DNA of 64,000 nucleotides from the NCBI GenBank assembly GCA_964016885.1, contig OZ024740.1:302498001-302562000 (forward strand), in the 5' to 3' direction. This document shows positions 8,560-63,249 of this stretch, piece after piece. The translations under genes were made by a program, and so were the position numbers. This DNA comes from Eledone cirrhosa (taxonomy: Eukaryota). The notes beneath the pieces are model-generated. The model was not told the origin of the DNA, made no database searches, and worked only from the letters and a program-made list of their open reading frames with translations. How positions within the stretch are numbered: the stretch's first letter is position 1; the number at the start of each line of letters is the position of its first letter.

Positions 8560-8578
8560 AGTATACATATCTAATAAT

Positions 8579-9497: not shown

Positions 9498-11191
9498 CCT
9501 CATATATATAAATATATATATAATATCCACCAGTGCGATCACACTATCTTGAAGATAATGTGATTTGCATTGTTGCATTGAGGCCAATGTATTATATATA
9601 CCTATATTACCGATGTTGATAAAAATACCATTGAAAACTAAAACCGCTCGTGTGTCCTGGTTTTTCGAAGCAATTAGACGAGAGAATATACACACGAAGA
9701 ACCCATGACCTGTCTATTCTATACATGTGCGTTGTTTATTTATTTCCTATTACGTTTGAAGACCTGAAAGCTAAATCATGAGATATAAACACTAATATCT
9801 ACACTTGACGCTCCTATCAAAATTTGACATATTTATCAGTAGCTTAATTTGACAGTGCTTTCTGAACGTGGATTTTACCACAATATAAATTGTACGGAGT
9901 TTTTTCTCTGTGAGCTCCTAAAAAATATTTTCTTTAATCGCCTGAATGCACATTAGAATATCTTATCCACCTCACCTATACAGTTTATTTCAATTCTCTC
10001 TTCGTTTTTAATCTTCTGTTGACTGATGTTTCCAACGTGTATTTGATGAAGCTGTTGCTCTTTACCTCGCGAGAAATGTTTTGCTTCTCTCTCTTTCTTG
10101 TCTTCGTACTATTGTGACTCAATTTTCGAGCTCTCTTGTAGAATATGTTATATAATTTCAGTATGCAGTATTTGTAATCTCTGCTCCAGGGTCTCCTTCT
10201 CCTTGCGTATGTGTTGGTCTCAGACTGTTGTCGTTCGACTGAGCGAAATCAGAGCTCAGTGACCAGATTTGAGGGCCCGACACGAGTAGGTCGACAAACT
10301 GTTATCTCTGCTCCGTAGTGTAAGACTTAAGGAACTCTTTCAGTTTACACATTTTGTTTTTATTTGAAACTGGAATATTTACGAAATCACTGAATCTGTT
10401 AAAAATACCAGCCAAATAACAATCTAATGTTTTGTGGAGACAATGATTCTAGTCAAGCATTACATTACTCGATATCTCTTCAAGGCGATAGGTTATGACC
10501 AGTATGTCAATTCTAACATATTCGGGTAAACTATAAAAACCTCGCTATATTTATATACCACTTTATTTAATTGTTTTCTGTTTTATATCTTCATTGCTTG
10601 ATGCATTACATTAAATATATAAATACATGAATAAATATATGACAAAATATTTCACCACGTATGTATGAATGTTTGTATGTATGTATCTATGCATGTAGGT
10701 ATGTATGTACATATGTGTGTATGTATATATGTATATATTTATGTTTATATGTATGTATGCATGTATGCACATATGTATGTAAATATGTATGTGCATATGT
10801 ATGTAGTGGCTACTACAAACGAAATATCATTGATCAGAAATGTCTGTGCTGACTAATGTGTCCTTTCCGCATTTTCTCTCTAACTTCATATCTGATTGAG
10901 TACCTCATTTACTTCGGTTACCCCAGATTTAACTCTGAATCAATCTATCTACCTATCTATCTTTATCTATCTATCTATCTGGGATGGACACACGCGTGAA
11001 ACTTGCTGGGTAAGTTCCGCCTAAATTTCCATAGAAATTCCTAACTGTAAACTTTCATTTTTGTACCATTTTGTAGAGGGACTGCCAGGGCAAATTTTGA
11101 TCTGGTCAGTCTCTCAAATTATTCTACGCCTTTAGGCGAAATAGTGGTGAAAAAAAATGTTATCTTTCGAAATATGTCCTACTTTGATAAA

Positions 11192-11348
11192 AATGATTGA
11201 AGCATCTTCACCAACATTCAAAGGAAGAAAAGGGAAGCTAAACTCACAGCTTCCCCCTGCCACTTTCACAGCAGCAAATGCCAAAGGCAGAGGTCAGCCA
11301 CCTGCTGACCGACAACTTGATGTAGCCACAACTATACAAGAAACTGAA

Positions 11349-11379
<31 letters not shown>

Positions 11380-12911
11380 GCAACAATCAAGACACAAAAA
11401 CAACAACAACATCAACAACACCACCAACAACAACAGCAACACGAACAAGGAAAATGTCTCCTTCGACCAGACTGTAAGGAAAACCCTCGACTATCTGCTA
11501 GTAGATATAAGCAAAGCTAAGGAGCTACTGGCAGATGACAAAAAATACGTAGTGTACGGGGAAAATGGATTATTTTCGATCCCCCCCCCCCCGGAACTAA
11601 AAAGCCGGAGACTCTTAAACACTGTGATGTTTAGGACAGTTTCAAACAAAACCAAAAAACCACCTCAACCATCACAGAGTGAGATAGAGCTGGTTTTAAA
11701 AGATGTCATGAAAGACATCACATTCATTCAGAAGGATAGACTCTATGGGAGTCTATCCATTCTCATGAAGGACAGGGACACAGCAGTGAAACTGTCAATA
11801 AAACCAATCTCATCCACCTCATACACCTTCTACCCGACGTACATGGGTAGAAGGACACAACAAATAAAAATTCACATCATCCTTCCGATTATGGACATAT
11901 GGTGGGTATTGACAGGTTTCCTGGACCTAGACGACGCCACATTAATATCCATGGGAAAGGCATCGGATGACGCGTTCAGTGGAACGGGCCTCGAACTTGT
12001 AGTTCAAATGAGGCCCGAAAGGATCGCTCAGATCCCTGAACGCGTCATACTGGATGATCAAACTTTTATTAACATTACCGTTGAGGGTAGGCGGCCCTCG
12101 TGTTACCACTGGGGAGTCAGAGGTCACCTGAGGGATGTCTGTCCTGAACTTAAAAAGAAAACTCCAATCTACACCACCAACAACTGCACAACCAACACAA
12201 TCACCACAACCACCACTACAAAAACAACAACAGCTCAAACCAGAACAAAACACTGTCCCCCCCCTCCACTAAAAAAACTCAATTTCCAAAACACCAGCAC
12301 CGCAAACACAACCCGAAAATCTACTCCTCCCCTCCAACATGGAAGACGTTCGTCATCAGACGAGGAGGAGCACTTCCACACAATCAAAAGAAAAAAAGAA
12401 AACACACCTCAGACACAAAAATGAATACAACCCATCCCCCAAAATAACACAGACACCAACACAAAAGAGCACACAACAACAGCAAACAAAAAACACCACA
12501 CAAAAACAAAAACATGCATACACATACATAAACACAGGAAATAAAAAACTGCTAAACATTGTATACAACAACAATTTAGTTAAAACCCAAGGGCCTAACT
12601 TCACCCAGGCAGGGGATTTCCCCCACCTAAAAATGATTAAGGCCCCAGGGGACACATATAAAACGCTAAAAAACAACTTTAAAGAGGACGTGCCCCTCTC
12701 CTACTCCCCCACCCACCCTGCGTCGGGCCTATTAACCGCGTCCTCCTAAAAAATTTCCCCACCCTCTCCACAAACACCCACACAACTCCAAACACCCCAA
12801 CCACACAACAGACTGATGCCGCTACACTTCCACAAACCACCACCCCACCCAACAACCCATCCCACCCTCATGGAAATTATGCAGCCCAATACCCGGGACG
12901 CAGAAAGGTAA
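11192..12911 (+). pseudogene. LINE ORF1 (nucleic-acid-binding protein with degenerate zinc knuckle), disrupted
   Basis: ORFs 11157-11477, 11552-12424 and 12339-12749; VEGRRPSCYHWGVRGHLRDVC knuckle; ends MEIMQPNTRDAER* at TAA 12909-12911; homologous to ORF1 at 16063. Confidence 0.8.
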
Positions 12912-12935
12912 GTGCCTTTTCTCTTCACCACCAAC

Positions 12936-15900
12936 ACGGCTATTCTGAGAGTAGGTTGTCTAAATGCGCGTGGCCTGGGCTCAACTTGGAAGCAAGCAAT
13001 GCTTCTAAATGACCTCAGGTCACAACGTATAGATGTGATGGTTATTTGCGAGGCCCGGATCAGCAACGTGTGACAGCTGGCCCCACCTTTGACGACTTTG
13101 AGATGTACGCATCTCTCTGTCAGCCCGGAGGTGGGGGTGGGGTTGTCGTTCTGCTGCAAACACATCTGAGTCTCGCAACACAGACGGTACATTTGGATCC
13201 GGAGAGTCGACTAGTGGTTCTGGACCTTGGCAGTGGTGAAGGCGGAGCGTTTAAGCTGGTAGCCGTCTACGGCCCTTTCGGGTCAACGCGGGCGGACTTC
13301 TTCCATCGCCTGGAGACTTTTCTAGGGACGTCCCGCTCCTTGATATTAGTGGGGGACTGGAGTGGTATCCTAGATGCACGTTGGTAATACGTAGGGGCCT
13401 GTCCCGATAGAGAGGGGTGTAACAGCCTCAAAGGGTTAATCGGCCGATTTGACCTGGCCGATAGATATCGACTAGATTTTCCGACTGCGCCAACCTGGAC
13501 TTGGGCAAACCGCAGCGGATCATCTAGGTCGTACTTAGATATGTTCTTAGTTAGAAATAAGGATAAGGACTTTTTAAGTTGTCCAAAAATGCCCATGGTT
13601 GGCTATTCAGACCACCAGTTAGTGACCTGCATGGTCAACCTTGACAGAACGCATAGACAGGGACCCGATTACTGGAAGCTAAACTTGTCCATACCAGCAA
13701 GTAAAGCTTACAGGGACCGGATTAGCACTTTAGTTAAGGAGAGGTTGATGGGCGCCATCGTCAACAGCAGGTGCTGGGGATCTCTCAAAAGAGAGATTAG
13801 AGTAGTCTCTATAGAATTTAGTAAGGAGTTAGCCTCAAATAGAAATAGGAAGGAAAGGGAGCTGGTAGAAGAGGCAATTTGAAGCGGCAACGTCAGCCAG
13901 AATGCTAGCGTCGGGAACGGCCCTGGGTTAGTTCTTCGACGCGAAACACAAAGGTTGCATCGTCCGAAGGAAAATACGTCCTCTGGGAAACGAGGAGACC
14001 ACCAAAGCTGTTTGCTGGGCCCGCGTGACAGAATCCAAAAGAGGGACTAGATCCACTATCCGGTCTTTGCGAGACCAGGATGGACGGGTGATCCTTGAAC
14101 CTAAGCAGATGTGCGAGGCTTTTCAAAAGCTCTTTGCCAGATTGTTCGGAAGGGGCGGGGGGCCGGTTGGGGAAGTGGACTTCGGTCCATACCTCGACGG
14201 CCTTCCGCGTCTCTCGAACAAGGAGGCGGAGTCCTGCGAGGAGCCGATTTCAGCTTCTGAGATAGAGGACGTTCTGAGCCAATGCGGCAAACGCAAATCT
14301 CCGGATCCCGATGGTCTTCCATACGAACTAGATCTAGCTATGCCGGACTTGTTCCCCGATCTCCTCGAGGCGGTCTACTGCAGCTGGCAACAGAACGGGA
14401 GAATTCCCTGTGCTGTGACTAAGGTCGTAGTCACGCTAGTGAGGAAGGACGAGAACAAGCGGGACGATATAAATAATTTCCGGCCCATAAATCGGCTAAA
14501 TACAGAGTTACAGATTTTGGCCAAGGTGCTAGCAAAGAGGTTGGCGCTTGTCGTGGGCAACCTGGTGGGAGATGCGCAGACATGTGCTATCCCGTCCAGG
14601 TCCATCCACGACAACCTCCACCTCATGCGATACATCATAAAGAGGGTTGGGAACGAATCCGGTTTTGGTGGGCCCTGATCAACTTGGATCAATCTAAGGC
14701 ATTCAATAGGGTCGACCATGGTTACCTGGATGCGGTGCTAGCGGCGGCAGGCTTCGGACCCGTTTTCAGGGGATCGATCACTGCCATGCACAGCAGCCGC
14801 ATCTGCTCTAGGGTCAAGGTGAACGGCTACCTCTCGGAGCCGTTCGAAATCGCGCGGTCCATACGAAAGTGTGCCCTCACTCCTCCCTTCTATATGTAAT
14901 GACTCTAGAGGCACTGCTACGGAAGTTGGAGTTGTTGCAGGGCATCCCGTTGGAACCGGGATTGCGGAAACGGTGTCGGCCTACGCCGATGACGTAACAG
15001 TAATGGTTTCGACGGCCTCGGAACTCGGGGCGATCGGCACCTTACTGGAGGAGTACGAAAGGTTTACAGGGGCTAAGCTGAACCGGGACAAGTCGATCGG
15101 TCTGCAACTCGGCACATGGAGGGGCAAATCGATGCCCTCCGATGGCGTCGTCGGGCGCTGGACGGAGGGCCGGGTGAAGTTTCTCGGGGTCTGGTTCGGA
15201 CCACACCTCCAGATGGAGAAGAACTGGGGTGACGTAACGAACAGGGTGTTTGCACTGACTCAGAAGTGGGCCGAGTGCAAACTATCCCTGAAAGGTCGGG
15301 CGGAGGTGGCGAACACTTATATAGCGTCCGTCATCTACTACCGCCTTACCGTCGTGCCTTGCCCAACGGAAATGCTCGCCAAAATGGTGCGCGTACTCTT
15401 CCAATTCCTTTGGAAGAGGCGGGCTCCTATGGTGAGGAGATCCATCTGCTGTCAACACCCTTCGAAAGGAGGGATGGGGATGCCGTGGCTGATGATGCAT
15501 AAACACGCATTAAGGTTACGGCACCTCCAGGTATTCCTCATCGGTCAACCGGTGTGGGCCCCGTTTGTGAGGCGAGCCTTTCCCAGACTCGTCTCGCTCA
15601 CTGAGCTGCAATTCTGGGTCAAGCAAAGACCGAGAAAACTGGGCGCCTGGCACACCGAGTATGCCCAGGCGCTCACGGCTCTCTGGCAGGCGGACCCGGC
15701 TGTCAGTGGAGAATCCACCTCGTCATTCTATAGATGGCTCGTGGTTAGCAGGTGCGACGACGCCCTCGGAGAAGCCCTAGGCATGGAGGAAAACGAACTG
15801 GCCAACCTGTTCGGTAGGACATTCAGCCCGGGACCTATGGATAACTTCCAGAGGTCCCTGGCCAGACAGTGCTACCGAGGGGCACTGCCCGTTCGAGAAA

Positions 15901-16067
15901 GGCTCTACAGACACGGGCGCCCGGGAAGGGACCCCTCGAGAAAGATCTGTCCCAGATGCGTGTGCACTGCCGATCCGGTTGACCACCGAGTGTATTGTAA
16001 CGATGAAGCCCCCTCCCCTCTTCAAAAACGAAGGAGAGACGGTGTTTCTGTGCGTAATAGCCATGGC
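12936..16067 (+). pseudogene. LINE ORF2 (APE endonuclease + reverse transcriptase), disrupted
   Basis: Fragments with GDW, SDH, KSP.PDG, FRPI, LDQSKAF, YADD, CPRC; collinear with the 1032-aa ORF at 59970-63068; start codon reads ACG. Confidence 0.93.
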
Positions 16068-19000
16068 TGAAGCAAAGGTACCTACTTTTTGTCAAAACAA
16101 GAAGATGGGAGGGAAAGCCATGCCTACTTGACCAGCAGGTAGTAGCAGACATGGACAAATGAATGCCAACATTATCGCCTCAAAATTTAGAAGAGGAACA
16201 AGCATCAGCTGCTTGTAAGCAACTGAACACGCCTGACGTCACAAACGTCACATGTATCGACACACAGTAGGAAGTATCTGTAGCAAACACTAATACCACC
16301 ACAACCAACAACAACAACACAATAAATGAGAACAACAACAACACAACAAAAGGAATCAGTGGCAACACAACGAATGAGACCATCATCACCACCACCAACA
16401 ACAACAATAACCAAATTTCATTTGCAGCAACAGTATTTTATATACTACTCCATGAACATTTCCCAAAAGTCCCAATATTTGGAAGAAGCTTCCAACTATG
16501 TGACGTTTGAGAGAGACAGCCCAGACATACACATACCCCCACAAGTAAGAGAAATTACACAGAAAAAGAAGCTAATTTATAGAACAGTTGACATCACTAC
16601 CAAAAAACCCATAACGCTCCCAACAAGCACTATCGAAGCTGCACTAAAAGACATCAAGCCAGACGTGGCATACCTCCAAAGAGGTTAACAGTATGGAAGT
16701 GTGTCAGTGCTCTTTAAGTGCGAAACACTGGCACAAAAACACTCGGTTCACCCAATAAAAACGGATCAACACATCTTCTTCCATGGGAAGAAGATCCTAC
16801 AAAATAAAAATAACCAGGATCCCAGCAGAGGTCAACATATGGTGGATCCTACGCTGCATCCTGAAGAAGGATGAGGACACCCTCCTATCTGTAGACAGGA
16901 CAGACCGGCATAACTGGTTTGGAACCTGTATCGAGGTTCTGGTACAAATGAGGCCTGAGAGAGTTGAGAAAATACCGGACAGGATCGTCCTTGAGGAAGA
17001 TGTCATCTCCATTTTAGTGGAAGGGAAAAGACCTCAGTGCCATAAGTGTGGGAAAACCACACACTTAAAGGCCTTTTGCCCTCTCTTAAACACATAGAGG
17101 ACAAACAAGGTGTTATTACCAACACCAAAACCCCAACATCAACACTCAAAACCAAACACAACACAAACACCTGTAACATCCACTCCCACACCACCACAGA
17201 CCAGAGACAACCACACACACAAAATCCAACTGAATAACTCTCCATTGCCTCTTCCCCCCCCCCCTTCAAATACTTCCACAAACACTCCACCACATACGCC
17301 TCCCATCTACCCCTGATTCAGAAGTCTCAGATACGGGAACCTCTACATCTCCAAGTGAGAATGAAGAGTAACCCCAAAAATTCAAAAACAAAAAAGACAC
17401 AAAAAAGACACAAAAACATCTACAGAAAACACGCACACACCCAACCCCACCATAAACACATCGCCACAAACGACAAACACACCAACAACACAATCACCAC
17501 CAAAACAACCAAACACTTCACCAACAAAACAAACACCCACACCACCACAATCACAAACCCCAACCACAAAAAGAAAACTACAAACAGAAACAGTACACAT
17601 AAAAAACAAAACACACTACACATACATAAAAACAAGAAACAAAGAACTGGTGGAAACTGTCCGAAAGGACCCCACAATACAAACGGAAGGGAAAACCTTC
17701 CCTACCAACGACCCACCCCCAAACCTCAAACTTATCAGGGTAACAACCCTACAGTATCAAACTTTAAAAAAAAACTTCCCACATGATGTGGGCCCCCCCC
17801 CCCCCCTTGCCAAAAGCCCCTTAACCGTGTCCTGCTAAAAGGATTCCCTGCCTCCTCAAATACCACCAATCTGGACATGGAGATCGAACAACCCGACCTC
17901 CAGGAAACGAAAAGGTAAGTGTTCTCCTTAACTCTTCTTCACCAACATGGCGACTATACAAGCTGGAAACAGGGCCAGCTTTTAAATGATCTCAGGTCAC
18001 ATTGTATAGATGTGATAGCCATCACCGAGTCTAAAATTCACGACAAGCAGCAGCTAACACCCATGTTCGATGATTTTGAGATCTACGTATCTCTCTGGCA
18101 GCCAGGAGGTCGAGGGGGAGTTGCTGGTCTGTTTCGAAAAAACATGGATCTCAAAATACAGACGATTCACTTGGACCCGGAGGGCAGCCTGGTGGTCCTG
18201 GACGTGAATGGTAGTGAAGGTGGAGCTTTCAGACTGGTGGCCGTATATGCCCCGACTGGGACATCGCGACCAGAGTTCTTCAAGCGTCTGGAGCCATTCC
18301 TGGGAACGTCTCGCTCCTTAGTGTTAGCGGGGGACTGGAATGGCATCTTAGACGCACGATGGGACTATGTAGGAGCTTGTTATAATAGAGGGGGTGTAAT
18401 AGCCTCAAAAATCTCATAAGCCAATTCCAACTGGCTGATAGATAGCGACTAGACTTCCCAAGTGCACCAATGTGGACGTGCAGCAACCGCACTGGGTCTT
18501 CTAGATCGTATTTAGATAGATTTTTAATTAGACAGAATGATAAGGAAACATTAAGCTGTCCACAAGTGCACATGGTTGCCTATTCAGACCACAAATTAGT
18601 TACCTGCGTAGTCAATCTTGGTAGAACACATAGACAGGGATCCTGATACTTGAAGCTAAACATGTCGCTCCCGGTGCGTAAGGCCTACAGTAAACGGATT
18701 AGCACCTTAGATAAGTGCCAGTTGACGGGAGCGATCGTCAACAACAGGTGGTGGAGCTCTCTCAATAGAGCAATTAGAATAGAATCGATAGCATTTAACA
18801 AGGAAGTAGCTTTAGAAAAAAACAAAACTGAAAAGGAACTGGTAGCTAAAATAGAAGAGGCACTTAGGAATGGCAGTACAACTGACATGCTAGCGGCGAG
18901 AACGGCACTAGACCAGTTCTTCAACGTGAAACACGAAGGTCGTATTGTCAGAAGTAGAACACGTGCTCTAAGAAACGAGGGAGCCAAGGCTGTTAGCTGG

Positions 19001-19573
19001 GCCCGAGTGGCAGAGGCGAAAAGTGGCAATAAATCCACAATTCGGTCTTTGCAAGACAAAGATGGACGCATTATACTTGAATCCAAGCAGAATGTGCGCA
19101 GTCTTCCAGCAGCATTTTGCACAACTGTTCGGGCAAAGCGGTACATCGAGCGAGGTGATGGACTTCAGCTCCTACCTAGACGGCGTACCGCGACTCTCGA
19201 GCACGGATGCGGAGGGCTGCGAAAGGCCGATCACAGAGGGCGAAATAGAAGATGCCCTAGGCCGCTGCGGGAAACGCAAGTCACCCGGTTTAGATGGTCT
19301 ACCCTATGAGTTTTACATAGGCATGCCAGACTTGTTCTCTGGCGTCCTCGAAGTGGTCTACTGCAACTGGCAGCAGAATGGGAGGATTCCCAGTTCTGTA
19401 GGCAGAGGCGTAGTAACGCTGATCAGGAAAAATGAGAACAAGGGGGGTGAAATAAGCAATTTCAGGCCCATAACTCTGCTCAACACAGAGTTAAAGATTT
19501 TGGTCAAGCTGTTAGCAGCAAGGCTGGCGCTTGTCGTCAAGAGCCTGGTAGGGGAAGCCCAAACGTGTGCAAC
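16063..19573 (+). mobile_element. Second Tx1-clade LINE (divergent subfamily), lacking 5'UTR and 3' half of RT
   Basis: ORF1 from ATG 16063 with CHKCGKTTHLKAFC (CX2CX4HX4C), stop at 17916-17918; ORF2 from ATG 17947 with GDWN, SDH, KSPGLDG, FRPITLLN; homology stops at AQTCA. Confidence 0.92.
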
Positions 19574-22201: not shown

Positions 22202-22390
22202 GGGCGGTGGATTGGCAGTATCGGTAGAGGGCCGGACGCCATGCTTTGCAGCATAGTTACGTCCCTTTACGATCTGAGTTTAAACCCCGCCTAGGTTAAC
22301 TTTGCCTTTCATCCTTACGGGGTCGATAAAATAAAGTACCAGTAACGTACTGGGTAGTTGCTGGCCTTGTGCCTAAAGTAGAAACAATTA
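22202..22390 (+). mobile_element. tRNA-derived SINE with target-site duplication
   Basis: Same family as 8374; direct repeat attatttgctgttatagg at 22186-22203 and 22387-22404. Confidence 0.92.
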
Positions 22391-22561
22391 TTTGCTGTTA
22401 TAGGTATTGTTGTTTTTATTCTATAACTCTTGCAGGGCGCTGTTTGCAAGGAAAATGTTTGACTAGTCGTCAAACGCTTGTTTATATCTATATATCAGGG
22501 TACAACTAGTTTAAAACTTGTTATTCCGTTATTCAACAGAGTAAATTATGGCTTCATTATG

Positions 22562-33285: not shown

Positions 33286-33619
33286 ATTAGGTATTAAATT
33301 AACAACGAAATTAAAAACAAGTCAAGTTAATTTACCTACCCATATCATTGTTTTATGATCGTTTCGGAGGGGCGATCATATTGACATAGTGTTTGATCTA
33401 TAGCAGTTATATAACCATACTATCAGACCGTCTATATATAAATAAATAGAGAGAGTGAGATGGAAAATCCCGACAGCGCCGCCACTGTACTGGGAGACTC
33501 TCTCTCGCTCTTTATACATATACTTTTGCACACCCACACACTCACACATTCACACACACACACACAATATGTTTTAATATCCTGGCAAGTCCGTCACATG
33601 GTTTCAAGCTGAAAGGTTA

Positions 33620-36600: not shown

Positions 36601-37137
36601 CCTGGAGGGAAATTAGCTAACCAGTGTAGAAAGGCCCTGAGAAAGACCCACTTAAAAATAAAGGTGGTAGAAAAGCCAGGAACCACCATAAAATCCCTGA
36701 TCAGCAAAACCTACCCTTTTAAGAAAACCCACTGTACCAATAGGAAATGTATCATATGTAAGGTGAACCCCCGGATAAACTGTAAAACTAGAAACGTAGT
36801 CTATAGCATAAGATGTACAGAGGGTACTTGCAGAAACACGACAACAACATACATAGGTGAGACAGCTCGTAGCATAGGTGAAAGGATAGACCAACACTGG
36901 GGGGAACTAAAAGGACGAAAAAACGGGTCAGTACTATACGAACATGCTAGACAACAACATGACGGTAACATAGACAACATAGAAATTAGAATAATATCTA
37001 AACATAGGAATGACCCAGCAGATAGGCAAATCAGAGAGGCCAGTGAAATAGAAATTAGAAGACCAAAGCTAAACAGAAAGAATGAGTGGAACAACAACAA
37101 CACCCAAACAAACAACACTGATCTAAGAGAAGTATAA
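33620..37137 (+). pseudogene. PLE polyprotein: reverse transcriptase + GIY-YIG endonuclease, frameshift at ~35797
   Basis: TDKSG, YGLRKDHK, RPVC, SMDVVSLYPSI (motif A); after the shift IKTTLKGHIFKFNEKIYTQNEGAAIG (B'), RYVDD (C), LPVLD, YAKPMAS; CxxxxCxxC, NVVYSIRC..YIGET.R..ER..H, REASEI..P.LN. Confidence 0.93.
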
Positions 37138-39995: not shown

Positions 39996-40817
39996 ATTGA
40001 TGAACAACTTTTTAGCAAGACCTGTAAGAAATCGCAACCAAATATCACAAAACTTAGTCTACTGTTTTGTGTATATACATATTATTACATGGCTCAACTT
40101 TGCCGCAAATCTCTTCTCGAAACAGTTGGTTGGCGGCGACATTGTGAAAATAGCCAGCGAGATATTTTGGGGTGTCTGTTTCAGCTCAGTGCTTTCTGAG
40201 TTTAAATACTTCTTACTTTCATTGGGACAATGTTGCCGTTCTGCCAGGATTTGCGAACAACATATAATGACTGCAATGCAAAGCCCAACGACTGCCATTT
40301 ACCCAAAAGCAAAATGAATGTTTAAAGAAAAAGATGCATTTTACCTTAAGTGTGGAGAAACGCGGCTTTTGAGGACATGTTATACTTTTTGTATTGCTTG
40401 CTCGGGAAAGAGGACCCATAAGAGATTGGTTAGTGACAGGAAGGAAATTTTCAAACCAGTTTCCTGTCCTAATTCTTGAAACAAATTGCACTCTTCTAAA
40501 ACAGTTTGATACCTAAGTCAATACTCATTGATCCGTGGCATTACAACCACAGCACGACCCAATAATATGGGTACTGAATAATACATCTGTGCAATCGTAC
40601 GATCGAGTAGGAACAGAAAAATAATGTCTTATTTTAATTGGAAAATGAATACATGGACAAAAGGCGCGATAATAAGTGTTATATGAATTGGAGGACAAAT
40701 GGGGACAAATCAAGGTTCTTTTAAAATTATAAGATATCATATACATTGCATGAACTACGAGAATCAACTCCCACCTCACTTTATATGAGCCAGTAAATTG
40801 TTATTTTAAAGATCGAT

Positions 40818-40995
40818 AATTGTTTCTACTATTGGCACAAGGCCAGCAATTACCCAGTGCATTACTGGTACTTTATTTTATCGACCCTGTAAGAATGAAA
40901 GGCAAAGTTAACCTCGGCGGGATTTGAACTCAGATGGTAAAGGGACGTCACTACGCTGGAGAGCATGTCTGACCCTCTACCAATACTGCCAATTC
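40818..40995 (-). mobile_element. tRNA-derived SINE
   Basis: Same family as 8374; flanked by tcgataat at 40813-40820 and 40994-41001. Confidence 0.9.
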
Positions 40996-44000: not shown

Positions 44001-47000
44001 AGGACCACTATGTTGGTAGCCCCACTATGTTGGTAGCACTACTATGTTGGTAGCACTATTATGTTGGTAGCATCACTATGCTGGTAGCACTATTATGTTG
44101 GTAGCACTGTTATGTTGGTAGCCCAACTATGTTGGTAGCCCACTATGTTGGTAGTACTACTATGTTGGAAGCCCCACTATGTTGGTAGCACTACTATATT
44201 GGTAGCACTACTATGTTGGTAGCCCCACTATGTTGGTAGCACTACTATGTTGGTAGCACTACTATGTTGGTAGCCCCACTATGTTGGTAGCCCCACAATG
44301 TTGGTAGCCCCACTATGTTGATAGCACTACTATGTTGGTAGCACTACTATGTTGGTAGCCCCACTATGTTGGTAGCCCCACAATGTTGGTAGCCCCACTA
44401 TGTTGGTAGCACTACTATGTTGGTAGCACTACTATGTTGGTAGACCCACTATGTTGGTAGCCCAACTATGTTGGTAGCACTACTATGTTGGTAGCACCAC
44501 TATGTTGGTAGCCCCACTATGTTGGTAGCCCAACTATGTTGGTAGCACCACTATGTTGGTAGCCCTACTATGTTGGTAGCCCCACTATGTTGGTAGCACT
44601 ACTATGTTGGTAGCCCCACTATGTTGGTAGCCCCACTATGTTGGTAGCCCAACTATGTTGGTAGCACCACTATGTTGGTAGCACTACTATGTTGGTAGCA
44701 GCACTATGTTGGTAGCACTACTATGTTGGTAGCAGCACTATGTTGGTAGTCCAACTATGTTGGTAGCCCCACTATGTTGGTAGCACTACTATGTTGGTAG
44801 CCCCACTATGTTGGTAGCCCCACTATGTTGGTAGCACTACTATGTTGGTAGCAGCACTATGTTGGTAGTCCAACTATGTTGGTAGCCCCACTATGTTGGT
44901 AGCACTACTATGTTGGTAGCCCCACTATGTTGGTAGCCCCACTATGTTGGTAGCCCCACTATGTTGGTAGCCCCACTATGTTGGTAGACCAACTATGTTG
45001 GTAGCCCCACTATGTTGGTAGCCCCACTATGTTGGTAGCCCCACTATGTTGGTAGCACTACTATGTTGGTAGCCCCACTATGTTGGTAGCCCCACTATGT
45101 TGGTAGCCCCACTATGTTGGTAGCACCACTATGTTGGTAGCCCCACTATGTTGGTAGCACTACTATGTTGGTAGCCCCACTAAGTTGGTAGCACTACTAT
45201 GTTGGTAGACCCACTATGTTGGTAGCCCAACTATGTTGATAGCACTACTATGTTGGTAGCCCCACTATGTTGGTAGCACTACTATGTTGGTAGCCCCACT
45301 ATGTTGGTAGCCCCACTATGTTGGTAGCACTACTATGTTGGTAGACCAACTATGTTGGTAGCCCCACTATGTTGGTAGCCCCACTATGTTGGTAGCCCAA
45401 CTATGTTGATAGCACTACTATGTTGGTAGCCCCACTATGTTGGTAGCCCCACTATGTTGGTAGCCCCACTATGTTGGTAGCACTACTATGTTGGTAGACC
45501 AACTATGTTGGTAGCCCCACTATGTTGGTAGCCCCACTATGTTGGTAGCCCAACTATGTTGATAGCACTACTATGTTGGTAGCCCCACTATGTTGGTAGC
45601 ACTACTATGCTGGTAGCCCCACTATGTTGGTAGCACCACTATGTTGGTAGCACTACTATGCTGGTAGCCCCACTATGTTGGTAGCCCCACTATGTTGGTA
45701 GCACTACTATGCTGGTAGCCCCACTATGTTGGTAGCAGCACTATGTTGGTAGCCCCACTATGTTGGTAGCACCACTATGTTGGTAGCACTACTATGTTGG
45801 TAGCCCCACTATGTTGGTAGCACCACTATGTTGGTAGCCCCACTATGTTGGTAGCACAACTATGTTGGTAGCCCCACTATGTTGGTAGCCCCACTATGTT
45901 GGTAGCCCCACTATGTTGGTAGCACCACTATGTTGGTAGCACTACTATGTTGGTAGCCCCACTATGTTGGTAGCACCACTATGTTGGTAGCCCCACTATG
46001 TTGGTAGCACAACTATGTTGGTAGCCCCACTATGTTGGTAGCCCCACTATGTTGGTAGCCCCACTATGTTGGTAGCACTACTATGTTGGTAGCAGCACTA
46101 TGTTGGTAGCACTACTATGTTGGTAGCCCCACTATGTTGGTAGCCCCACTATGCTGGTAGCCCCACTATGTTGGTAGCACTACTATATTGGTAGCCCTAC
46201 TATGTTGGTAGTCCAACTATGTTGGTAGCCCCACTATGTTGGTAGCACTACTATGTTGGTAGCACTACTATGTTGGTAGCCCCACTATGTTGGTAGCACT
46301 ACTATGTTGGTAGCACTACTATGTTGGTAGCCCCACAATGTTGGTAGCAGCACTATGTTGGTAGCACTACTATGTTGGTAGCCCCACTATGTTGGTAGCC
46401 CCACTATATTGGTAGCCCCACTATGCTGGTAGCCCCACTATGTTGGTAGCACTACTATATTGGTAGCCCTACTATGTTGGTAGCCCCACTATGTTGGTAG
46501 CCCCACTATGTTGGTAGCCCCACTATGTTGGTAGCCCCACTATGTTGGTAGCCCCACTATGTTGATAGCACTACTATGTTGGTAGCCCCACTATGTTGGT
46601 AGCCCCACTATGTTGGTAGCACTACTATGTTGGTAGCCCCACTATGTTGGTAGCACTACTATGTTGGTAGCACCGCTATGTTGGTAGCACTACTATGTTG
46701 GTAGCCCCACTATGTTGGTAGCCCCACTATGTTGGTAGGACCACTATGTTGGTAGCCCCACTATGTTGGTAGCACTACTATGTTGGTAGCACCACTATGT
46801 TGGTAGCACTACTATGTTGGTAGCCCCACTATGTTGGTAGCCCCACTATGTTGGTAGCACCACTATGTTGGTAGCCCCACTATGTTGGTAGCCCCACTAT
46901 GTTGGTAGCCCCACTATGTTGGTAGCACTACTATGTTGGTAGCCCCACTATGTTGGTAGCACTACTATATTGGTAGCCCTACTATGTTAGTAGCCCCACT

Positions 47001-50000
47001 ATGTTGGTAGCACTACTATGTTGGTAGCACTACTATGTTGGTAGCCCCACTATGTTGGTAGCACTACTATGCTGGTAGCCCCACTATGTTGGTAGCACTA
47101 CTATGTTGGTAGCCCCACTATGTTGGTAGCACTACTATGTTGGTAGCACTACTATGTTGGTAGCACTACTATGTTGGTAGCACTACTATGTTGGTAGCAC
47201 TACTATGTTGGTAGCACTACTATGTTGGTAGCCCCACTATGTTGGTAGCACTACTATGCTGGTAGCCCCACTATGTTGGTAGCACTACTATGCTGGTAGC
47301 CCCACTATGTTGGTAGCACAACTATGTTGGTAGCGCCACTATGTTGGTAGCACTACTATGCTGGTAGCCCCACTATGTTGGTAGCACCACTATGTTGGTA
47401 GCACTACTATGTTGGTAGCACTACTATGTTGGTAGCCCCACTATGTTGGTAGCACTACTATGTTGGTAGCCCCACTATGCTGGTAGCCCCACTATGTTGG
47501 TAGCACCACTATGTTGGTAGCCACACTATGTTGGTAGCACTACTATATTGGTAGCCCTACTATGTTAGTAGCCCCACTATGTTGGTAGCCCTACTATGTT
47601 GGTAGCCCCACTATGTTGGTAGCCCCACTATGTTGGTAGCACTACTATGTTGGTAGCACTACTATGTTGGTAGCCCCACTATGTTGGTAGCACTACTATA
47701 TTGGTAGCCCCACTATGTTGGTAGCACTACTATGTTGGTAGCCCCACTATGTTGGTAGCACTACTATGTTGGTAGCACTACTATGTTGGTAGCCCCACTA
47801 TGTTGGTAGCACTACTATGTTGGTAGCCCTACTATGTTGGTAGCACTACTATGTTGGTAGCACTACTATGTTGGTAGCACCACTATGTTGGTAGCCCTAC
47901 TATGTTGGTAGCACCACTATGTTGGTAGCCCCACTATGTTGGTAGCCCAACTATGTTGGTAGCCCCACTATGTTGGTAGCACTACTATGTTGGTAGCCCT
48001 ACTATGTTGGTAGCCCCACTATGTTGGTAGCCCCACTATGTTGGTAGCCCCACTATGTTGGTAGCACCACTATGTTGGTAGCACCACTATGTTGGTAGCA
48101 CCACTATGTTGGTAGCACTACTATGTTGGTAGCCCCACTATGTTAGTAGCACCACTATGTTGGTAGCACCACTATGTTGGTAGCCCCACTATGTTGGTAG
48201 CCCCACTATATTGGTAGCACTACTATGTTGGTAGCCCCACTATGTTGGTAGCACCACTATGTTGGTAGCCCCACTATGTTGGTAGCCCCACTATGTTGGT
48301 AGCCCCACTATGTTGGTAGCCCTACTATGTTGGTAGCACTACTATGTTGGTAGCACTACTATGTTGGTAGCCCCACTATGTTGGTAGCCCCACTATGTTG
48401 GTAGCCCCACTATGTTGGTAGCACCACTATGTTGGTAGCACTACTATGTTGGTAGCCCCACTATGTTGGTAGCCCCACTATGTTGGTAGCACTACTATGT
48501 TGGTAGCCCCACTATGTTGGTAGCACCACTATGTTGGTAGCACTACTATGTTGGTAGCCCCACTATGTTGGTAGCACTACTATGTTGGTAGCACTACTAT
48601 GTTGGTAGCCCCACTATGTTGGTAGCCCCACTATGTTGGTAGCCCCACTATGTTGGTAGCCCCACTATGTTGGTAGCACTACTATGTTGGTAGCCCCACT
48701 ATGTTGGTAGCCCCACTATGTTGGTAGCACTACTATGTTGGTAGCCCCACTATGTTGGTAGCCCCACTATGTTGGTAGCACTACTATGTTGGTAGCCCCA
48801 CTATGTTGGTAGCCCCACTATGTTGGTAGCACTACTATATTGGTAGCCCAACTATGTTGGTAGCCCCACTATGTTGGTAGCCCCACTATGTTGGTAGCCC
48901 CACTATATTGGTAGCACTACTATGTTGGTAGCCCCACTATGTTGGTAGCACCACTATGTTGGTAGCCCCACTATGTTGGTAGCCCCACTATGTTGGTAGC
49001 CGCACTATGTTGGTAGCCCCACTATGTTGGTAGCACTACTATGTTGGTAGCACTACTATGTTGGTAGCCCCACTATGTTGGTAGCACTACTATATTGGTA
49101 GCCCCACTATGTTGGTAGCACTACTATGTTGGTAGCCCCACTATTTTGGTAGCCCCACTATGTTGGTAGCCCCACTATGTTGGTAGCCCCACTATGTTGG
49201 TAGCCCAACTATGTTGGTAGCACTACTATGTTGGTAGCCCCACTATGTTGGTAGCCCCACTATGTTGGTAGCACTACTATGTTGGTAGCCCCACTATGTT
49301 GGTAGCCCCACTGTGTTGGTAGCCCCACTATGTTGGTAGCCCCACTATGTTGGTAGCACCACTATGTTGGTAGCACCACTATGTTGGTAGCCCCACTATG
49401 TTGGTAGCCCCACTATGTTGGTAGCCCCACTATGTTGGTAGCACCACTATGTTGGTAGCACTACTATGTTGGTAGCACTACTATGCTGGTAGCACAACTA
49501 TGTTGGTAGCACCACTATGTTGGTAGCACTACTATGTTGGTAGCACTACTATGCTGGTAGCACAACTATGTTGGTAGCACCACTATGTTGGTAGCCCCAC
49601 TATGTTGGTAGCCCCACTATGTTGGTAGCCCCACTATGTTGGTAGCCCCACTATGTTGGTAGCACTACTATGTTGGTAGCACCACTATGTTGGTAGCCCT
49701 ACTATGTTGGTAGCCCCACTATGTTGGTAGCACTACTATGTTGGTAGCACTACTATGTTGGTAGCCCTACTATGTTGGTAGCCCAACTATGTTGGTAGCC
49801 CCACTATGTTGGTAGCACTACTATGCTGGTAGCAGCACTATGCTGGTAGCCCCACTATGTTGGTAGCCCCACTATGTTGGTAGCCCCACTATGTTGGTAG
49901 CACTACTATGTTGGTAGCCCCACTATATTGGTAGCACTACTATGCTGGTAGCCCCACTATATTGGTAGCCCCACTATGTTGGTAGCACCAATATGTTGGT

Positions 50001-50180
50001 AGCACTACTATGCTGGTAGCAGCACTATGCTGGTAGCACTACTATGTTGGTAGCCCCACTATATTGGTAGCACCACTATGTTGGTAGCACCACTATGTTG
50101 GTAGCACTACTATGCTGGTAGTAGCACTATGCTGGTAGCACTTCTATGTTGGTAGCACTATTATGTTGGTAGAAGCACTA
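41051..50180. repeat. 17-bp minisatellite array (ACTATGTTGGTAG + variable 4 nt, mainly CCCC or CACT), roughly 535 units
   Basis: Direct inspection; degenerate units at both edges; length/17 gives ~535. Confidence 0.99.
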
Positions 50181-56432: not shown

Positions 56433-56618
56433 CGGTGGATTGGCAGTATCAGTAGAGGGTCGGACGCCATGCTTTCCAGCATAGTTACGTCCCTTTACGA
56501 TCTGAGTTCAAATCCCGCCGAGGTTGACTTTGCCTTTCATCCTTACGGGGTCGATAAAATAAAGTACCAGTAATGCACTGGGTATTTGCTGGCCTTGTGC
56601 CTAAAATAGAGACAATTA
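56433..56618 (+). mobile_element. tRNA-derived SINE nested in the family B element
   Basis: TSD gacaattatcttttt at 56418-56432 and 56611-56625; empty site visible in the other copy near 23985. Confidence 0.92.
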
Positions 56619-57003
56619 TCTTTTTATCAAAAAATTCTCTAAAAAGGCTACAGAATGGATTTCCAAATAAGGGCACAAACATTTAATGAAAATTTGTTCA
56701 CGTGATAGCCATAATTTCATTTATAACCAACCAAAAAAAAGCCTTCGTGAGCCTCCTTTTTTCAAGTAAAAAGAAATTCAAACACTCATATATGTAAAAA
56801 CAACCTGTGACAACCCCCCCCCCCTCTTATTTGAAGAACTATTGTAACGCGAACTGGCGCGAAATTTATTATAATTATTGACAAACCAATGAAATTACTT
56901 CTCGAAAAACCTGGCATTTCGAGCCACTTTTTCCATATAAAACAAGTAACATTCAGAGACCAACCAGATGTGAGAAAAACCACAGACCCTCCATCTCAAC
57001 TCA

Positions 57004-57609: not shown

Positions 57610-57723
57610 GATATATATATATGTGTGTCTGTGTGTGTGTGTGTGTTAATATAGGTTGATAGATAGGTAGTTAAATAAATAAATAGATAGTTAGATAGTT
57701 AGATAAATAGATAGATAAATAAA

Positions 57724-58596
57724 TTTCTTTATTAGCCACAAGGGCACAAAAGAAGGGGACAAATACAAATGGGGAGTTTACATACAGGTATATGAAAATA
57801 AAACTATTAATAAGATAACAAATAACAATTGATATCCCCAATAGGGGCGAGGCGTTACACAGGGGTTGTACACAGCCCGAAAAAATGTACAACCCTTATC
57901 TCCAGGAGCACCAAGAGTGAGTACTCCCTTCCTCTCTTCCTCTTTTTCCTCAACCTACAGGCTTATATAGAGAGAAGGCCCAACCACTCGGGCCATCTTT
58001 GGCACATTAACCCACCTTTTATAAAATTTGCTGGGGTACAGCACCTCTCTCTCCATCCTGATTCTTCTTCCAAAATGATATTTGAAAAAACGAATCAGTT
58101 GCTCACCGGAGAGAAAGGTGTCTGACCTCAGCCTTTTTAACCTCGTCCACCATATAACCTCTTTCACCATAGCCATAACACATAGGAAAACCGCCTGTCC
58201 CTCGTTTTTGAAGGAGGGTGGCGGTTTGATCATGACAATCGACTCGGTGGTCAACTGGATTGGTCCCACCCGCAACAATAGTCGTTCTACAAAGCCCCAC
58301 AGGTCGGTAACGCCTGGGCAGTGTACAAATGCGTGCGCGACGGTTTCCTCGTCCCGCACGCATCTCGGACAGATCTTTTTCGAAGAATCCCTACCCGGGC
58401 GCCTGTGTCTGTAGAGCTTGTCTCGAACTGGTAGAGCTCCTCGGTAGCATTGCCAGGTCAGAGACTTTTGGAAGTTGTCCATTGGTCCCGGGCGGAAGGT
58501 CCTAACGAACAGACTGGCCAGTTCGTCCTCCTCTACGCCTAAAGTTTCTCCGAGCATCTCGTCGCACTTGCTGCTGACCAACCCTCTATGGAATGA
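57724..58596 (-). mobile_element. Tx1-clade LINE 3' fragment A (CCHC region + 3'UTR)
   Basis: ORF 57955-58581 with CPRC..EETVAHAFVHC; ends AATAAAGAAA; bounded by (GATA)-like tracts. Confidence 0.92.
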
Positions 58597-58636
58597 TAGA
58601 TAGATAGATAGATAGATAGATAGAAAGATAGATAGA

Positions 58637-58914
58637 TTTCTTTATTTGCCACAAGGGCGCACTAGAAAAGGGGACAATACAAAGACATGCCGGGGATTTT
58701 ACATACAGTCGTGTAAAAAAAATATAAAAACAAACAATTACAACAATCGAAATCCCCAATAGGGGGAAGCGCCACAAATGGGTTGTTTAAAACCCCGTCG
58801 ATAGAACAACCCTCAACTCCAGGAGCGTGTTGTGCAAGTGATCCTTTCTTCCTTTTGCTCTCTTCTTTAACCTAGTGGCTTATAAAGAGAGAAGGCCCAA
58901 TCACTCGGGCCATT
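58637..58914 (-). mobile_element. Tx1-clade LINE 3' fragment B
   Basis: ORF2 last codons + 3'UTR homologous to A; ends AATAAAGAAA + (TCTA)n. Confidence 0.9.
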
Positions 58915-58935
58915 AGATATATATATATAGATAAC

Positions 58936-59306
58936 TTTCTTTTTATTTGCCACCAGGGCATCAAAAGTGGGACAAGTAAAAAGGGGGGAGTTTACATGCA
59001 AAGGCGTCCTCAATATGGAGGAGGCAATAACAAGATATAAAAGTATAAAAATAAAATAAAATATAACAAAATAAATTTTGTAACAAAATCCTCAATAGGG
59101 AGGAGGTTCCTTGGGGGGTCGCACACACCCCGAAAAAAGGTGTGCAACCCTTCTCCTCAGGAGCACAGAGAGGGGGTGCTCCCTTGGTCTTTCATCTTCC
59201 TCACCTATAGTCTGATGTAGAATGAAGGCCCATTCACACGGGCCATTCTCGCCACTTTCACCCATCTTTCATAAAAACGCCTGGGGTGCAGCACCTCTCT
59301 CTCCAT
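58936..59306 (-). mobile_element. Tx1-clade LINE 3' fragment C
   Basis: MEREVLHPRRFYERWVKVARMARVNGPSFYIRL* + 3'UTR nearly identical to D. Confidence 0.92.
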
Positions 59307-59327
59307 ATAGATAGATAGATAGATATA

Positions 59328-59402
<75 letters not shown>

Positions 59403-59404
59403 TG

Positions 59405-62400
59405 TTTCTTTTATTTGCCACCAGGGCATCAAAAGTGGGACAAGTACAATGGGGGGAGTTTACAAAACAAGGCGTCCTCAATAAGGAGGAGGCAATAACA
59501 ATATATAAAAATAAAATAAAATATAACAAAAAATAAAATTTATAACAAAGTCCTCAATAGGGAGGAGGCGCCTTGGGGGGGGGGGGTCGCACACACCCCC
59601 GAAAAAAAGGGTGCAACCCTTCTCCCCAGGAGCACAGAGAAGGGGTGCTCCCTTGGTCTTTCATCTTCCTCACCTATAGTCTGATGTAGAGTGAAGGCCC
59701 ATTCACACGGGCCATTCTCGCCACTTTCACCCATCTTTCATAAAAACGGCTTGGGTGCAGCACCTCTCTCTCCATCCTGATCCTTCTTCCGAAATGATAT
59801 CGGAAGAAACGGACCAGTTGTTGGCCAGAGAGAAAGGTGTCTGACCTCAGTCCTTTCAGACGCGTCCACCATACAACCTCTTTCGCCATGGCTATTACGC
59901 AAAGAAACACCGCCTCTCCTTCGTTTTTGAAGAGGGGAGGCGGCTTGATCGTTACAATAGACTCGGTGGTCAACCGGATTGGTCCCACCCTTGACAGCAG
60001 TTGCCCGAGCAGTGTACCAATGCGTGTGCAACGGTTTCCTCGTCGCACACGCATCTGGGACAGTTCTTTTTCGATGGGTCCCTACCCGGGCGCCCGTGTC
60101 TGTAGAGCCTTTCTCGAACGGGCAGAGCCCTTCTGTAGCATTGCCAGGCCAGGGACCTCTGGAAGTTATCCATGGGTCCCTGGCTGAATGTCCTACCGAA
60201 CAGGTTGGCCAGTTCGTCTTCCTCCATGCCTAGAGCTTCTCCGAGGGCGTCGTCGCACCTGCTAACCACCAGCCCTCTATAGAATGACGAGGTGGATTCT
60301 CCACTGACAGCCGGGTCCGCTTGCCAGAGAGCCGTGAGCGCCTGGGCACACTCGATGTGCCAGGCGCCCAGTTTTCTCGGTTTTTGCTTGACCCAGGATT
60401 GCAGCTCGGTGAGTGAGACGAGTCTGGGAAAGGCTCGCCTCACAAACGGTGCCCAGACCGGTTGACCGGAGAGGAATACCTGAAGGTGCCGTAGCCTTAA
60501 TGCGTGTTTACGTATCATTAGCCACGGCATCCCCAGCCCTCCTTTCGAAGGGTGTTGACAGCAGATGGATCTCCTCACCATAGGAGCCCGCTTCTTCCAA
60601 AGAAATTGGAAGAATGCGCGCTCCATTTTGGCGAGCGTTTCCCTTGGGCAAGGCACAACGGTCAGGCGGTAGTAGATGACGGACGCTATATAAGTGTTCG
60701 CCACCTCCGCCCGACCTTTAAGGGACAGTTTGCACTCGGCCCACTTCTGGGTCAGTGCAAACACCCTGTTCGTTACCTCGCCCCAGTTCTTCTCCACCTG
60801 GAGGTCTGGTCCGAACCAGACCCCGAGCAACTTCACCGGGCCCTCCGTCCAGCGCCCGATGACGCCATCGGAGGGCATCGATCTGCCCCTCCACGTGCCG
60901 AGTTGCAGACCGATCGACTTGTCCCGGTTCAGCTTAGCCCCTGTAAACCTTTCGTACTCCTCCAGTAAGGTGCCGATCGCCCCGATTTCCGAGGCCGTCG
61001 ACACCATTACTGTTACGTCATCGGCGTAGGCTGACACCGCTTTCCGCAAACCCGGTTCCAACGGGATGCCCTGCAATAACTCCAACTTCCGTAGCAGTGG
61101 CTCTAGAGTCATTACATACAGAAGGGAGGAGAGAGGCCACCCCTGTCGGATGGACCGCGCGATTTCGAACGGCTCCGAGAGGTAGCCGTTCACCTTGACC
61201 CTAGAGCAGATGCGGCTGCTGTGCATGGCATTGATCCAGCCCCTGAAAACGGGTCCGAAGCCTGTCGCCGCTAGCACCGCATCCAGGTAACCATGGTCGA
61301 CCCTATCAAATGCCTTAGATTGATCCAAGTTGATCAGGGCCCCACCAAAGCCGGGTTCGTTCCCAACCCTTTCTATGATGTATCGTATGAGGTGGAGGTT
61401 GTCGTGGATGGACCTGGACGGGATAGCACATGTCTGCGCATCTCCCACCAGGTTTCCCACGACAAGCGCCAACCTCTTTGCTAGCACCTTGGCCAAAATC
61501 TGTAACTCTGTATTTAGCAGAGTTATGGGCCTGAAATTATTTATATCGTCCCGCTTGTTCTCGTCCTTCCTCACTAGCGTGACTACGCGCTTGGTCACAG
61601 CACAGGGAATTCTCCCGTTCTGTTGCCATTTGCAGTAGACCGCCTCGAGGAGATCGGGGAACAAGTCCGGCATAGCTAGATATTGTTCGTATGGAAGACC
61701 ATCGAGACACGGGGATTTGCGTTTGCCGCATTGGCTCAGCACGTCCTCTATCTCAGCGGCTGAAGTCGGCTCCTCGCAGGACTTCGCCTCCCTGTCCGAG
61801 AGACGCAGCAGGCCGTCGAGGTATGGACCGAAGTCCACCCCCCCCCCGCCCCTTCCGAACAATCCGGCAAAGTGCTTTTGAAAAGCCTCGCACATCTGCT
61901 TAGGTTCAAGGATCACCCGTCCATCCTGGTCTCGCAAAGACCGGATAGTGGATCTGCTCCCTCTTTTGGCTTCTGTCACGCGGGCCCAGCTAACAGCTTT
62001 GGTCCCCTCGTTTCCCAGAGCACGTATTTTGCTTCGGACGATGCAGCCTTCGTGTTTCGCGTCGAAGAACTGGCCCAGGGCCGTTCTCGACGCTAGCACT
62101 CTGGCCACGTCGCCGCTTCTAATTGCCTCTTCTACACTATCTACCAACTCCCTTTCCTTCCTATTTCTATTTGAGGCTAACTCCTGACTAAATTCTATAG
62201 AGACTACTCTAATCTCTCTTTTGAGAGAACCCCACCACCTGCTGTTGACGATGGCGCCCGTCAACCGCTCCTTAACTAAAGTGCTAATCCGGTCCCTGTA
62301 AGCCTTACTTGCCGGTAAGGACAAATTGAGCTTCCAGTAACCGGGTCCCTGTCTATGAGTTCTGTCAAGGTTGATCATGCAGGTCACTAACTTGTGGTCT

Positions 62401-63100
62401 GAATAGCCAACCATGCGCATTGTTGGACAACTTAAAAAGTCCTTATCCTTAATTCTAACTAAGAACCTATCTAGGTACGACCTAGATGATCCGCTACGAT
62501 TTGCCCAAGTCCAGGTTGGCGCAGTCGGAAAATCTAGTCGATATCTATCGGCCAGGTCAAATCGACCGATTAACCCTTTGAGGCTATTACACCCCTCTCT
62601 ATCGGGACAGGCCCCTACGTAGTCCCAGCGTGCATCTAGGATACCATTCCAGTCCCCCACTAATAGCAAGGAGCGGGACGTCCCTAGAAAAGTCTCCAGA
62701 CGATGGAAGAAGTCCGGCCGCATTGACCCGAAAGGGCCGTAGGCGGTTACCAACCTAAACGCTCCGCCTTTACCACTCCGGTCCAAATGTACCATCTGTG
62801 TTGCGAGACCCAGATGTTTTTGCAGCAGAACGACAACTCCACCCCCACCTCCGCGCTGACAGAGAGATGCGTGCATCTCAAAGTCATCAAAGGTGGGGGC
62901 CAGCTGTCGCACGTTGCTGATCCGGGCCTCGCAGATAACCATCACATCTATACGTCGTGACCTGAGGTCATTTAGAAGCATTGCTTGCTTCCAAGTTGAG
63001 CCCAGGCCACGCGCATTTAAACAGCCTACTCTTAGCATAGCCATGTTGGTGGTGAAGAGAAAAGGCACTTACCTCTCTGCGTCCCAGGTATCGGGCTGCA
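59405..63100 (-). mobile_element. Tx1-clade LINE copy D, 5'-truncated just upstream of ORF2
   Basis: Last ~10 codons of ORF1, nearly complete ORF2, 3'UTR; (GATA)n on both sides. Confidence 0.95.
59674..63044 (-). pseudogene. LINE ORF2: APE endonuclease - reverse transcriptase - CCHC zinc finger, nearly intact
   Basis: 1032-aa ORF (ATG 63044): LNARGL, E, GDWN, SDH, FRPITLLN, LDQSKAFD, RQG.PLS, YADD, CPRC..EET..H..HC; in-frame deletion near 62780 and a frameshifting deletion near 60008. Confidence 0.95.
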
Positions 63101-63117
63101 CATAGATAGATAGATCA

Positions 63118-63249
63118 TTTTCTTTTTATTTGCCACCAGGGCATCAAAAAGTGGGACAAGTACAATGGGGGGAGTTTACATAACAAGGCGTCCTCAATAA
63201 GGAGGAGGCAATAACAAAATATAAAAATAAAATAAAATATAACAAAATT
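63118..63249 (-). mobile_element. Tx1-clade LINE 3'UTR-only fragment E
   Basis: Near-identical to the terminal ~130 bp of C and D. Confidence 0.9.

Follow-up and report, generated by a model that had tools for sequence, protein, structure and literature searches.

Among long interspersed nuclear elements (LINEs) that insert into simple repeats, Waldo and Mino belong to the R1 clade and Dong to the R4 clade. SART and TRAS, also of the R1 clade (PMC7265360), enter (TTAGG)n, and all of these elements insert in a phase- and strand-specific manner, Waldo and Mino at AC-type repeats and Dong at (TAA)n (PMC7265360, PMC3812793). Within the Tx1 clade, the published targets are (TC)n for Kibi and (TTC)n for Koshi, both of teleosts, and (TTCC)n or (TTTC)n for crocodilian families (PMC4494074, PMC3812793), and the Tx1L endonuclease by itself nicks its target almost exclusively (PMC1950540). 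A review calls the targeting mechanism of such LINEs not well understood (PMC3812793). Here we analyze a 64,000-bp stretch of the genome of the octopod Eledone cirrhosa (assembly GCA_964016885.1, contig OZ024740.1, positions 302,498,001 to 302,562,000; hereafter the window, in which all feature coordinates are given) that carries five LINE copies head to tail on the minus strand at 57655-63249. We conclude, with a probability of about 0.78, that these copies belong to an abundant octopod lineage of the L1 group, likely Tx1, whose copies lie in a single orientation and phase at ^TATCTAT (the caret marks the insertion point), for the most part inside (TATC)n/(GATA)n repeats, that the endonuclease of its second open reading frame (ORF2) likely nicks the GATA strand there, and that the array likely arose by five separate insertions into one site that was regenerated each time. 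An earlier reading of this DNA (the original prediction) had already pointed out that Tx1 families can be target-specific, naming Kibi at (TC)n and Koshi at (TTC)n, as PMC4494074 bears out.

The lineage resembles Kibi, Koshi and the crocodilian Tx1 families in being an apurinic/apyrimidinic endonuclease (APE)-type LINE of the L1/Tx1 group that enters a short pyrimidine-rich microsatellite, and its TATC is one base off the TTTC of the crocodilian families. With TATCT in 85% of flanks, it far exceeds the level at which PMC4494074 calls a family target-specific (one target in >20% of flanks). It differs from Kibi and Koshi in its motif, TATC (ATT in a sister family), and in its invertebrate octopod host; the sequence that follows 65 of 88 sampled copies, TATCTAT, is neither (TC)n nor (TTC)n. 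ORF2 has the same APE-reverse transcriptase (RT) layout as in Tx1L of Xenopus and in human L1 ORF2p, and, as at the TTTT/AA site of L1, a short consensus lies at the nick and the duplication begins there. Unlike Tx1L and L1, the octopod lineage has no poly(A) and carries an ORF1 that shows a weak CCHC knuckle but does not match Transposase_22, and its target preference falls between those of the promiscuous L1 and the stringent Tx1L. It shares phase- and strand-specific insertion into simple repeats with SART/TRAS, Waldo/Mino and Dong, but whereas SART1 depends on three repeats and on a poly(A) tail (PMC7265360), the octopod lineage tolerates a single motif and is tail-less.

Five insertions of several subfamilies in one array

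In 5'-to-3' order, the array consists of copies E, D, C, B and A, all on the minus strand together with the tracts between them. Copy E (63117..63247) is a ∼130-bp 3' fragment of end type ...AAAAAGAAAAT and is separated by a short TATC tract (63101..63116) from copy D (59403..63100), a 3.7-kb copy with a 5' truncation just before ORF2. The ORF2 of copy D, with APE, RT and zf-RVT domains, opens near 63044 and stops prematurely at 59970, beyond a small deletion (near 60002) that distinguishes it from other copies. A (TATC)n tract of ∼24 units (59307..59402) leads to copy C (58934..59306), a 373-bp 3' fragment of end type ...AAAAAGAAAGT, which is the type of full-length copies such as the one at 10981. 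A degenerate TATC/(TA)n tract (58914..58933) precedes copy B (58635..58913), a 279-bp 3' fragment of B-type, and a (TATC)n tract (58597..58634) precedes copy A (57722..58596), an 875-bp 3' fragment of A-type, beyond which lies a degenerate (TATC)n tract (57655..57721).

All five copies terminate in AATAAA-N0-2-GAAA-NN, without poly(A), and run into a TATC tract or a degenerate form of it (GATCT after E; TATTT and then TATC after A), and the 3' tract of each copy doubles as the 5' flank of the next. Coordinates and sequences agree in this with the original prediction, which had described AATAAA..GAAA ends without poly(A) leading into a (TCTA)n that flanks the next copy. It had also counted five same-strand copies of varied 5' truncation from at least two subfamilies; the pairwise identities (E-D 97%, C-D 90%, C-E 88%, A-D 77%, A-C 74%, A-B 72%) indicate that there are more than two. 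The copies differ in 5' breakpoint and terminal signature, and these different breakpoints together with 72-97% identity indicate independent insertions of several subfamilies and not tandem duplication. Growth of the array from a single insertion, through tandem duplication or unequal crossing-over, has a precedent in two copies with identical breakpoints elsewhere in the genome (L162 and L163), but for this array it is refuted by the distinct breakpoints, end types and identities, and we find it hardly credible.

A fixed 3' junction across the genome

The genome contains 1,488 exact matches to a 28-mer from the 3' end of copy D (the D-type end), of which 1,270 (85%) continue with TATCT. Given that TATCT occupies 0.2% of strand positions in the non-element DNA of the window, chance is excluded. 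The original prediction had looked to the flanks of genomic copies for (TCTA)n enrichment and phase, and the target preference of fixed polarity and phase that it proposed holds genome-wide, both in this proportion and in the duplications at TAT described below. We examined in detail the first 88 of 100 D-end matches listed on contig C1, picked regardless of their flanks. The next bases after the element are TAT in 85 of these copies, TATCT in 76 and TATCTAT in 65, with TATCTCT in only 4.

Other end types behave alike. The A-type end pattern has 6,908 genome matches and the B-type pattern 1,595, and TAT(C/A)T or TCTAT occurs within 10 bases past the end in 29 of the first 30 A-type and 27 of the first 30 B-type ends. 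The G-type, 73% identical to D, likewise ends at |TATCT, with TAT after all 14 ends located among 20 loci. When all collected end types are pooled, TATCT comes directly after 237 of 273 ends, although these loci overlap and are partly selected and partly non-independent. The lineage numbers about 10,000 or more exact ends. Further candidate ends at 60-75% identity proved to be false pattern matches inside the G-type 3' untranslated region. We note that the first 73-100 Mb of contig C1 carry A-type ends at ∼1.4 per Mb (genome mean, 2.3) and (TATC)5 tracts at ∼1.0 per Mb (genome mean, 1.7), so that other chromosomes must be richer in both.

The repeat as target

A TATC tract after every copy might be the element's own 3' tail, with arrays formed by tails that are later targeted or merely abut, and both the TAT found after nearly all 3' ends and the lack of a repeat at the 5' junction of copy E and of a minority of other copies are in keeping with this. 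However, the 3' flank, departures from TATC included, recurs at the 5' junction from its first base onward, and the 3' repeat is therefore target and not tail. Non-pure target-site duplications of at least 12 bp that start at the first base past the element are present in 20 of the 88 copies, whereas 1,000 random re-pairings of the flanks gave 1.1 on average and 6 at most. The duplications span ∼7-20 bp, begin at TAT, and in several copies (L050, L105, L144, L149, L157 and L161) lie in ordinary non-repeat DNA. A test for added units in 106 copies gave 26 unshifted and 2 shifted duplication matches, the latter explained by a tandem duplication in one case and a one-base mismatch in the other, and no repeat units added at 3' junctions were found among these copies. 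The duplications largely refute an element-borne tail, which we regard as very improbable; up to three terminal bases (TAT) could be common to RNA and target. The suggestion in the original prediction that the tract may start as the element's own tail accordingly fails at the 3' end.

At the 5' junction, we scored a TATC repeat of at least 7 bp within 30 bp, for which the background is 1.1%; a looser test, TAT(C/A)T within 40 bp, was discarded because of its 24% background. The original prediction had considered that solo copies might mostly lack a 5' repeat, but 31 of the 56 truncated copies without an upstream neighbor in the 88-copy sample have one. At least three TATC units occur in the 5' 30 bp of 42 of the 88 copies. 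The 5' flank of copy E is single-copy DNA without the TATC repeat, as had been predicted, and because it is single-copy, the empty site of this copy could not be rebuilt; its bare 5' end is a common minority state.

Reconstructed empty sites elsewhere approximate (TATC)^TATCTAT, with C preceding the cut in 18 of 27 informative sites and fewer than three perfect units in 17 of 27, a set that excludes pure tracts by construction. The specificity is thus for a short motif, ^TAT(C/A)T(A)T, favored in a TATC context, and not for a strict microsatellite. We also observed three separate insertions (L133, L136 and L171) at AACCTAAC^TATCTGT, apparently within another dispersed repeat.

Stacking and occupancy of TATC tracts

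A family member lies directly upstream or downstream of 38 of the 88 copies. All 23 downstream neighbors and 30 of the 31 upstream ones are on the same strand, the exception resembling a 5' inversion, and the re-targeting proposed in the original prediction, in which each insertion leaves target for the next, is borne out genome-wide. In the reverse approach, which starts from the repeat, 19 of the first 30 (TATC)5 tracts on C1 have a copy no more than 200 bp away, without exception in one polarity (Wilson interval, 46-78%); this count was 17 before two A-type 5' ends joined the library, a few of the tracts nearly duplicate one another, and the (TATC)5 pattern may favor A-type 5' junctions. 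None of 30 control (TATG)5 tracts adjoins a copy, despite fourfold more matches to the (TATG)5 pattern. The region is rich in simple repeats, and copies inserted at random might simply have survived in microsatellite-rich DNA, but the base-precise phase, the single polarity, the empty (TATG)5 controls and the differing motifs of sister families leave this explanation with practically no credence. Four further copies (L073, L076, L083 and L084) have identical breakpoints or flanks repeated nearby, indicating that arrays can also grow by duplication.

Enzyme recognition and RNA-DNA pairing

Under standard target-primed reverse transcription, the bottom strand would be nicked at 5'-ATAGATA^G, and the nick would prime reverse transcription at the ...GAAANN end of the RNA, perhaps aided by pairing with a read-through UAUC. 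Second-strand cleavage 7-20 bp downstream would then duplicate the motif, so that every copy is flanked by a site at either end, and later insertions could re-use these regenerated sites to produce head-to-tail arrays.

The same products might come from an enzyme that nicks AT-rich DNA loosely, with the site picked by pairing of the read-through UAUC with the primer, much like the pairing between the poly(A) of L1 and T-tracts; in that case, each target would derive from the flank of the donor copy. Conservation does peak at +1 to +7, the side where RNA would pair, and is weaker upstream, TATAT and (TC)n^TA sites are tolerated, and with AATAAA ∼9 nt from the end the transcript would plausibly enter the flank. 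Yet positions -1 to -8 also favor the TATC phase (C at -1 in the 18 of 27 sites noted above), a search for extra RNA-derived units at the 3' junctions found none, and the Tx1L endonuclease nicks its own target almost exclusively with no other component (PMC1950540). We consider site choice by pairing unlikely, and the analogy with Tx1L endonuclease specificity favors recognition by the enzyme.

The 5' ends of full-length copies point to a second source of target sequence. Ahead of all 30 sequences that best match the start of the 10981 copy lies TATC-like sequence (in one case TATGTCT), which finishes in TCT or TCTT in nearly all of them; all six G-type 5' ends have TCTCT ahead of the start. 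In L118, L125, L136 and, with less certainty, L308, 5-16 ATCT-like bases that the target lacks stand after a clean duplication. These few cases suggest that the full-length RNA likely starts inside the donor's upstream tract and carries part of it along, in which case full-length copies would bring a few extra ATCT-like 5' bases and add target.

Several observations weigh against enzyme-directed, separate insertion at TATC as the general rule. Endonuclease recognition and RNA-DNA pairing are not separable by sequence alone, and any duplication within a pure tract is invisible. The 88-copy sample represents one half of one contig and includes a few copies of the same array (L121/L122 and L162-L164), and the shared breakpoint of L162 and L163 (G000:C1:170.19 Mb) indicates that some arrays elsewhere grew by duplication. 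Of the 56 truncated copies without an upstream neighbor, 25 have no clear 5' TATC run and 16 not even TAT(C/A)T, some of the 25 being mis-mapped, rearranged or beside a gap, and copy E itself has no such run. The evidence for a leader comes down to three or four clean cases (L118, L125, L136 and the weaker L308).

A leader also bears on the second locus of the window, on the plus strand. An (ATCT)n tract with a probable element-borne leader (10939..10980) precedes copy F (10981..16067), a 5'-complete but decayed copy without a 3' end whose ORF2 is 93% identical to that of D. That this copy starts after (ATCT)n, as originally predicted, is correct, but as evidence for the target it is weaker than the truncated copies, the (ATCT)n being partly element-borne. 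Copy G (16063..19572), from a more distant family with 73% nucleotide identity to D, has lost its first ∼200 bp and is joined directly to copy F at 16063-16067; the fusion is probably a second head-to-tail pair with its junction deleted.

A sister family at (ATT)n

Three diverged copies end in the 3' box of the TATC-type lineage and then run into ATT repeats. The best 30 matches to one of these ATT-type copies continue with ATTATT in 23 cases and with TATCT in none. In three full-frame matches, the endonucleases of the ATT and TATC types share 52-59% identity, with catalytic motifs mostly kept. ATT-type copies (L143, L116 and L157; L356-L405) often adjoin an apparent host short interspersed nuclear element (SINE), and they also stack head to tail.

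We tentatively propose, as an idea we hold to be less probable than not, that the lineage both seeks and makes its target: through duplication and leader, this LINE would be the main maker and occupant of long octopod GATA tracts, and the ATT sister would represent a target switch, with specificity residues that could be mapped at ∼55-60% endonuclease identity. The presence of TATC and ATT sister families in one genome, together with one uninterrupted ORF2, makes the choice between enzyme and pairing open to domain swaps.

Structure and classification of the element

Full-length copies are ∼5.7 kb with two long ORFs and no long terminal repeats, and the median copy is 2.0 kb. ORF2 matches Pfam Exo_endo_phos and RVT_1 above cut-off, and its closest solved structure is that of L1 ORF2p (PDB 8sxt, E 7e-39); the endonuclease domain queried by itself gave weak PDB matches only. 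One uninterrupted ORF2 is present in the genome, with APE and YADD motifs. A C-terminal CCHC zinc finger in ORF2 is typical of Tx1, and here zf-RVT matches at E 4e-5, under the curated cut-off, with the motif visible in protein P0002. ORF1 has zf-CCHC matches at E 0.003 and 0.03, both under cut-off, and its Pfam search gave neither an RRM nor a Transposase_22 match; an ORF1 type with RRM and/or CCHC knuckle has been linked to Tx1 (PMC5203782). With APE and RT domains, two ORFs, 5' truncation and target-site duplications, the element is an APE-type non-LTR retrotransposon of the L1 group. It probably belongs to the Tx1 clade, a placement drawn from domain layout, the missing tail and motifs typical of the clade.

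Homologue searches returned one named protein, from Argonauta hians, 62% identical. In a tree of this protein and unnamed homologues, the collected end-type families form one clade, and the A. hians protein nests among the families of the E. cirrhosa genome itself. No relative with flanks emerged from a metagenome scan, and contigs of four runs, from three organisms, that cover the element with mixed identity gave nothing usable on its ends. In the last ∼40 nt of all end types, a conserved GCC-N5-GGC hairpin lies ahead of AATAAA (for example, 59403-59445). Its flanking U-run and A-run change length together (of 121 copies, 113 have 4/4 and 6 have 5/5), perhaps through a single evolutionary event. 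The hairpin is possibly an RNA recognition signal, but, being short and showing little variation, it carries no weight as evidence.

Novelty and significance

L1-Tx1 elements are an old coleoid component (PMC8967140), and Octopus vulgaris has 80 L1-Tx1 consensus families, 13 of them recently active (PMC13282606). Relatives of the present lineage are probably among these, and the word "target" does not occur in the text of that paper. A connection of L1-Tx1 with the Z chromosome of octopus found no support, as the available text of PMC10925132 speaks of LINEs generally. A TATC/GATA target is absent from the available passages on Kibi, Koshi and the crocodilian families (PMC4494074, PMC3812793), and a literature search, with Repbase/Dfam and subscription papers outside its scope, found no paper giving TATC/GATA as a LINE target. 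We therefore regard TATC as a new target motif for the known strategy of microsatellite-seeking LINEs, with a strong preference that explains the array; a prior description is possible. With this lineage, the microsatellite-seeking APE LINEs gain one more target motif and a group of invertebrate hosts. About half to three quarters of sampled long GATA tracts have a multicopy LINE flank, which would matter for octopod microsatellite markers and for repeat annotation.

Other features of the window

The window also contains two long open frames at 33578-37137 (744 and 459 codons, stop to stop) without a Pfam match. Several SINE-like repeats of ∼185 bp, ∼90% alike, lie at 8368-8801, 22200-22392, 40815-40995 and 56433-56620, and a 9-kb satellite with a 17-bp unit occupies 41051-50172.

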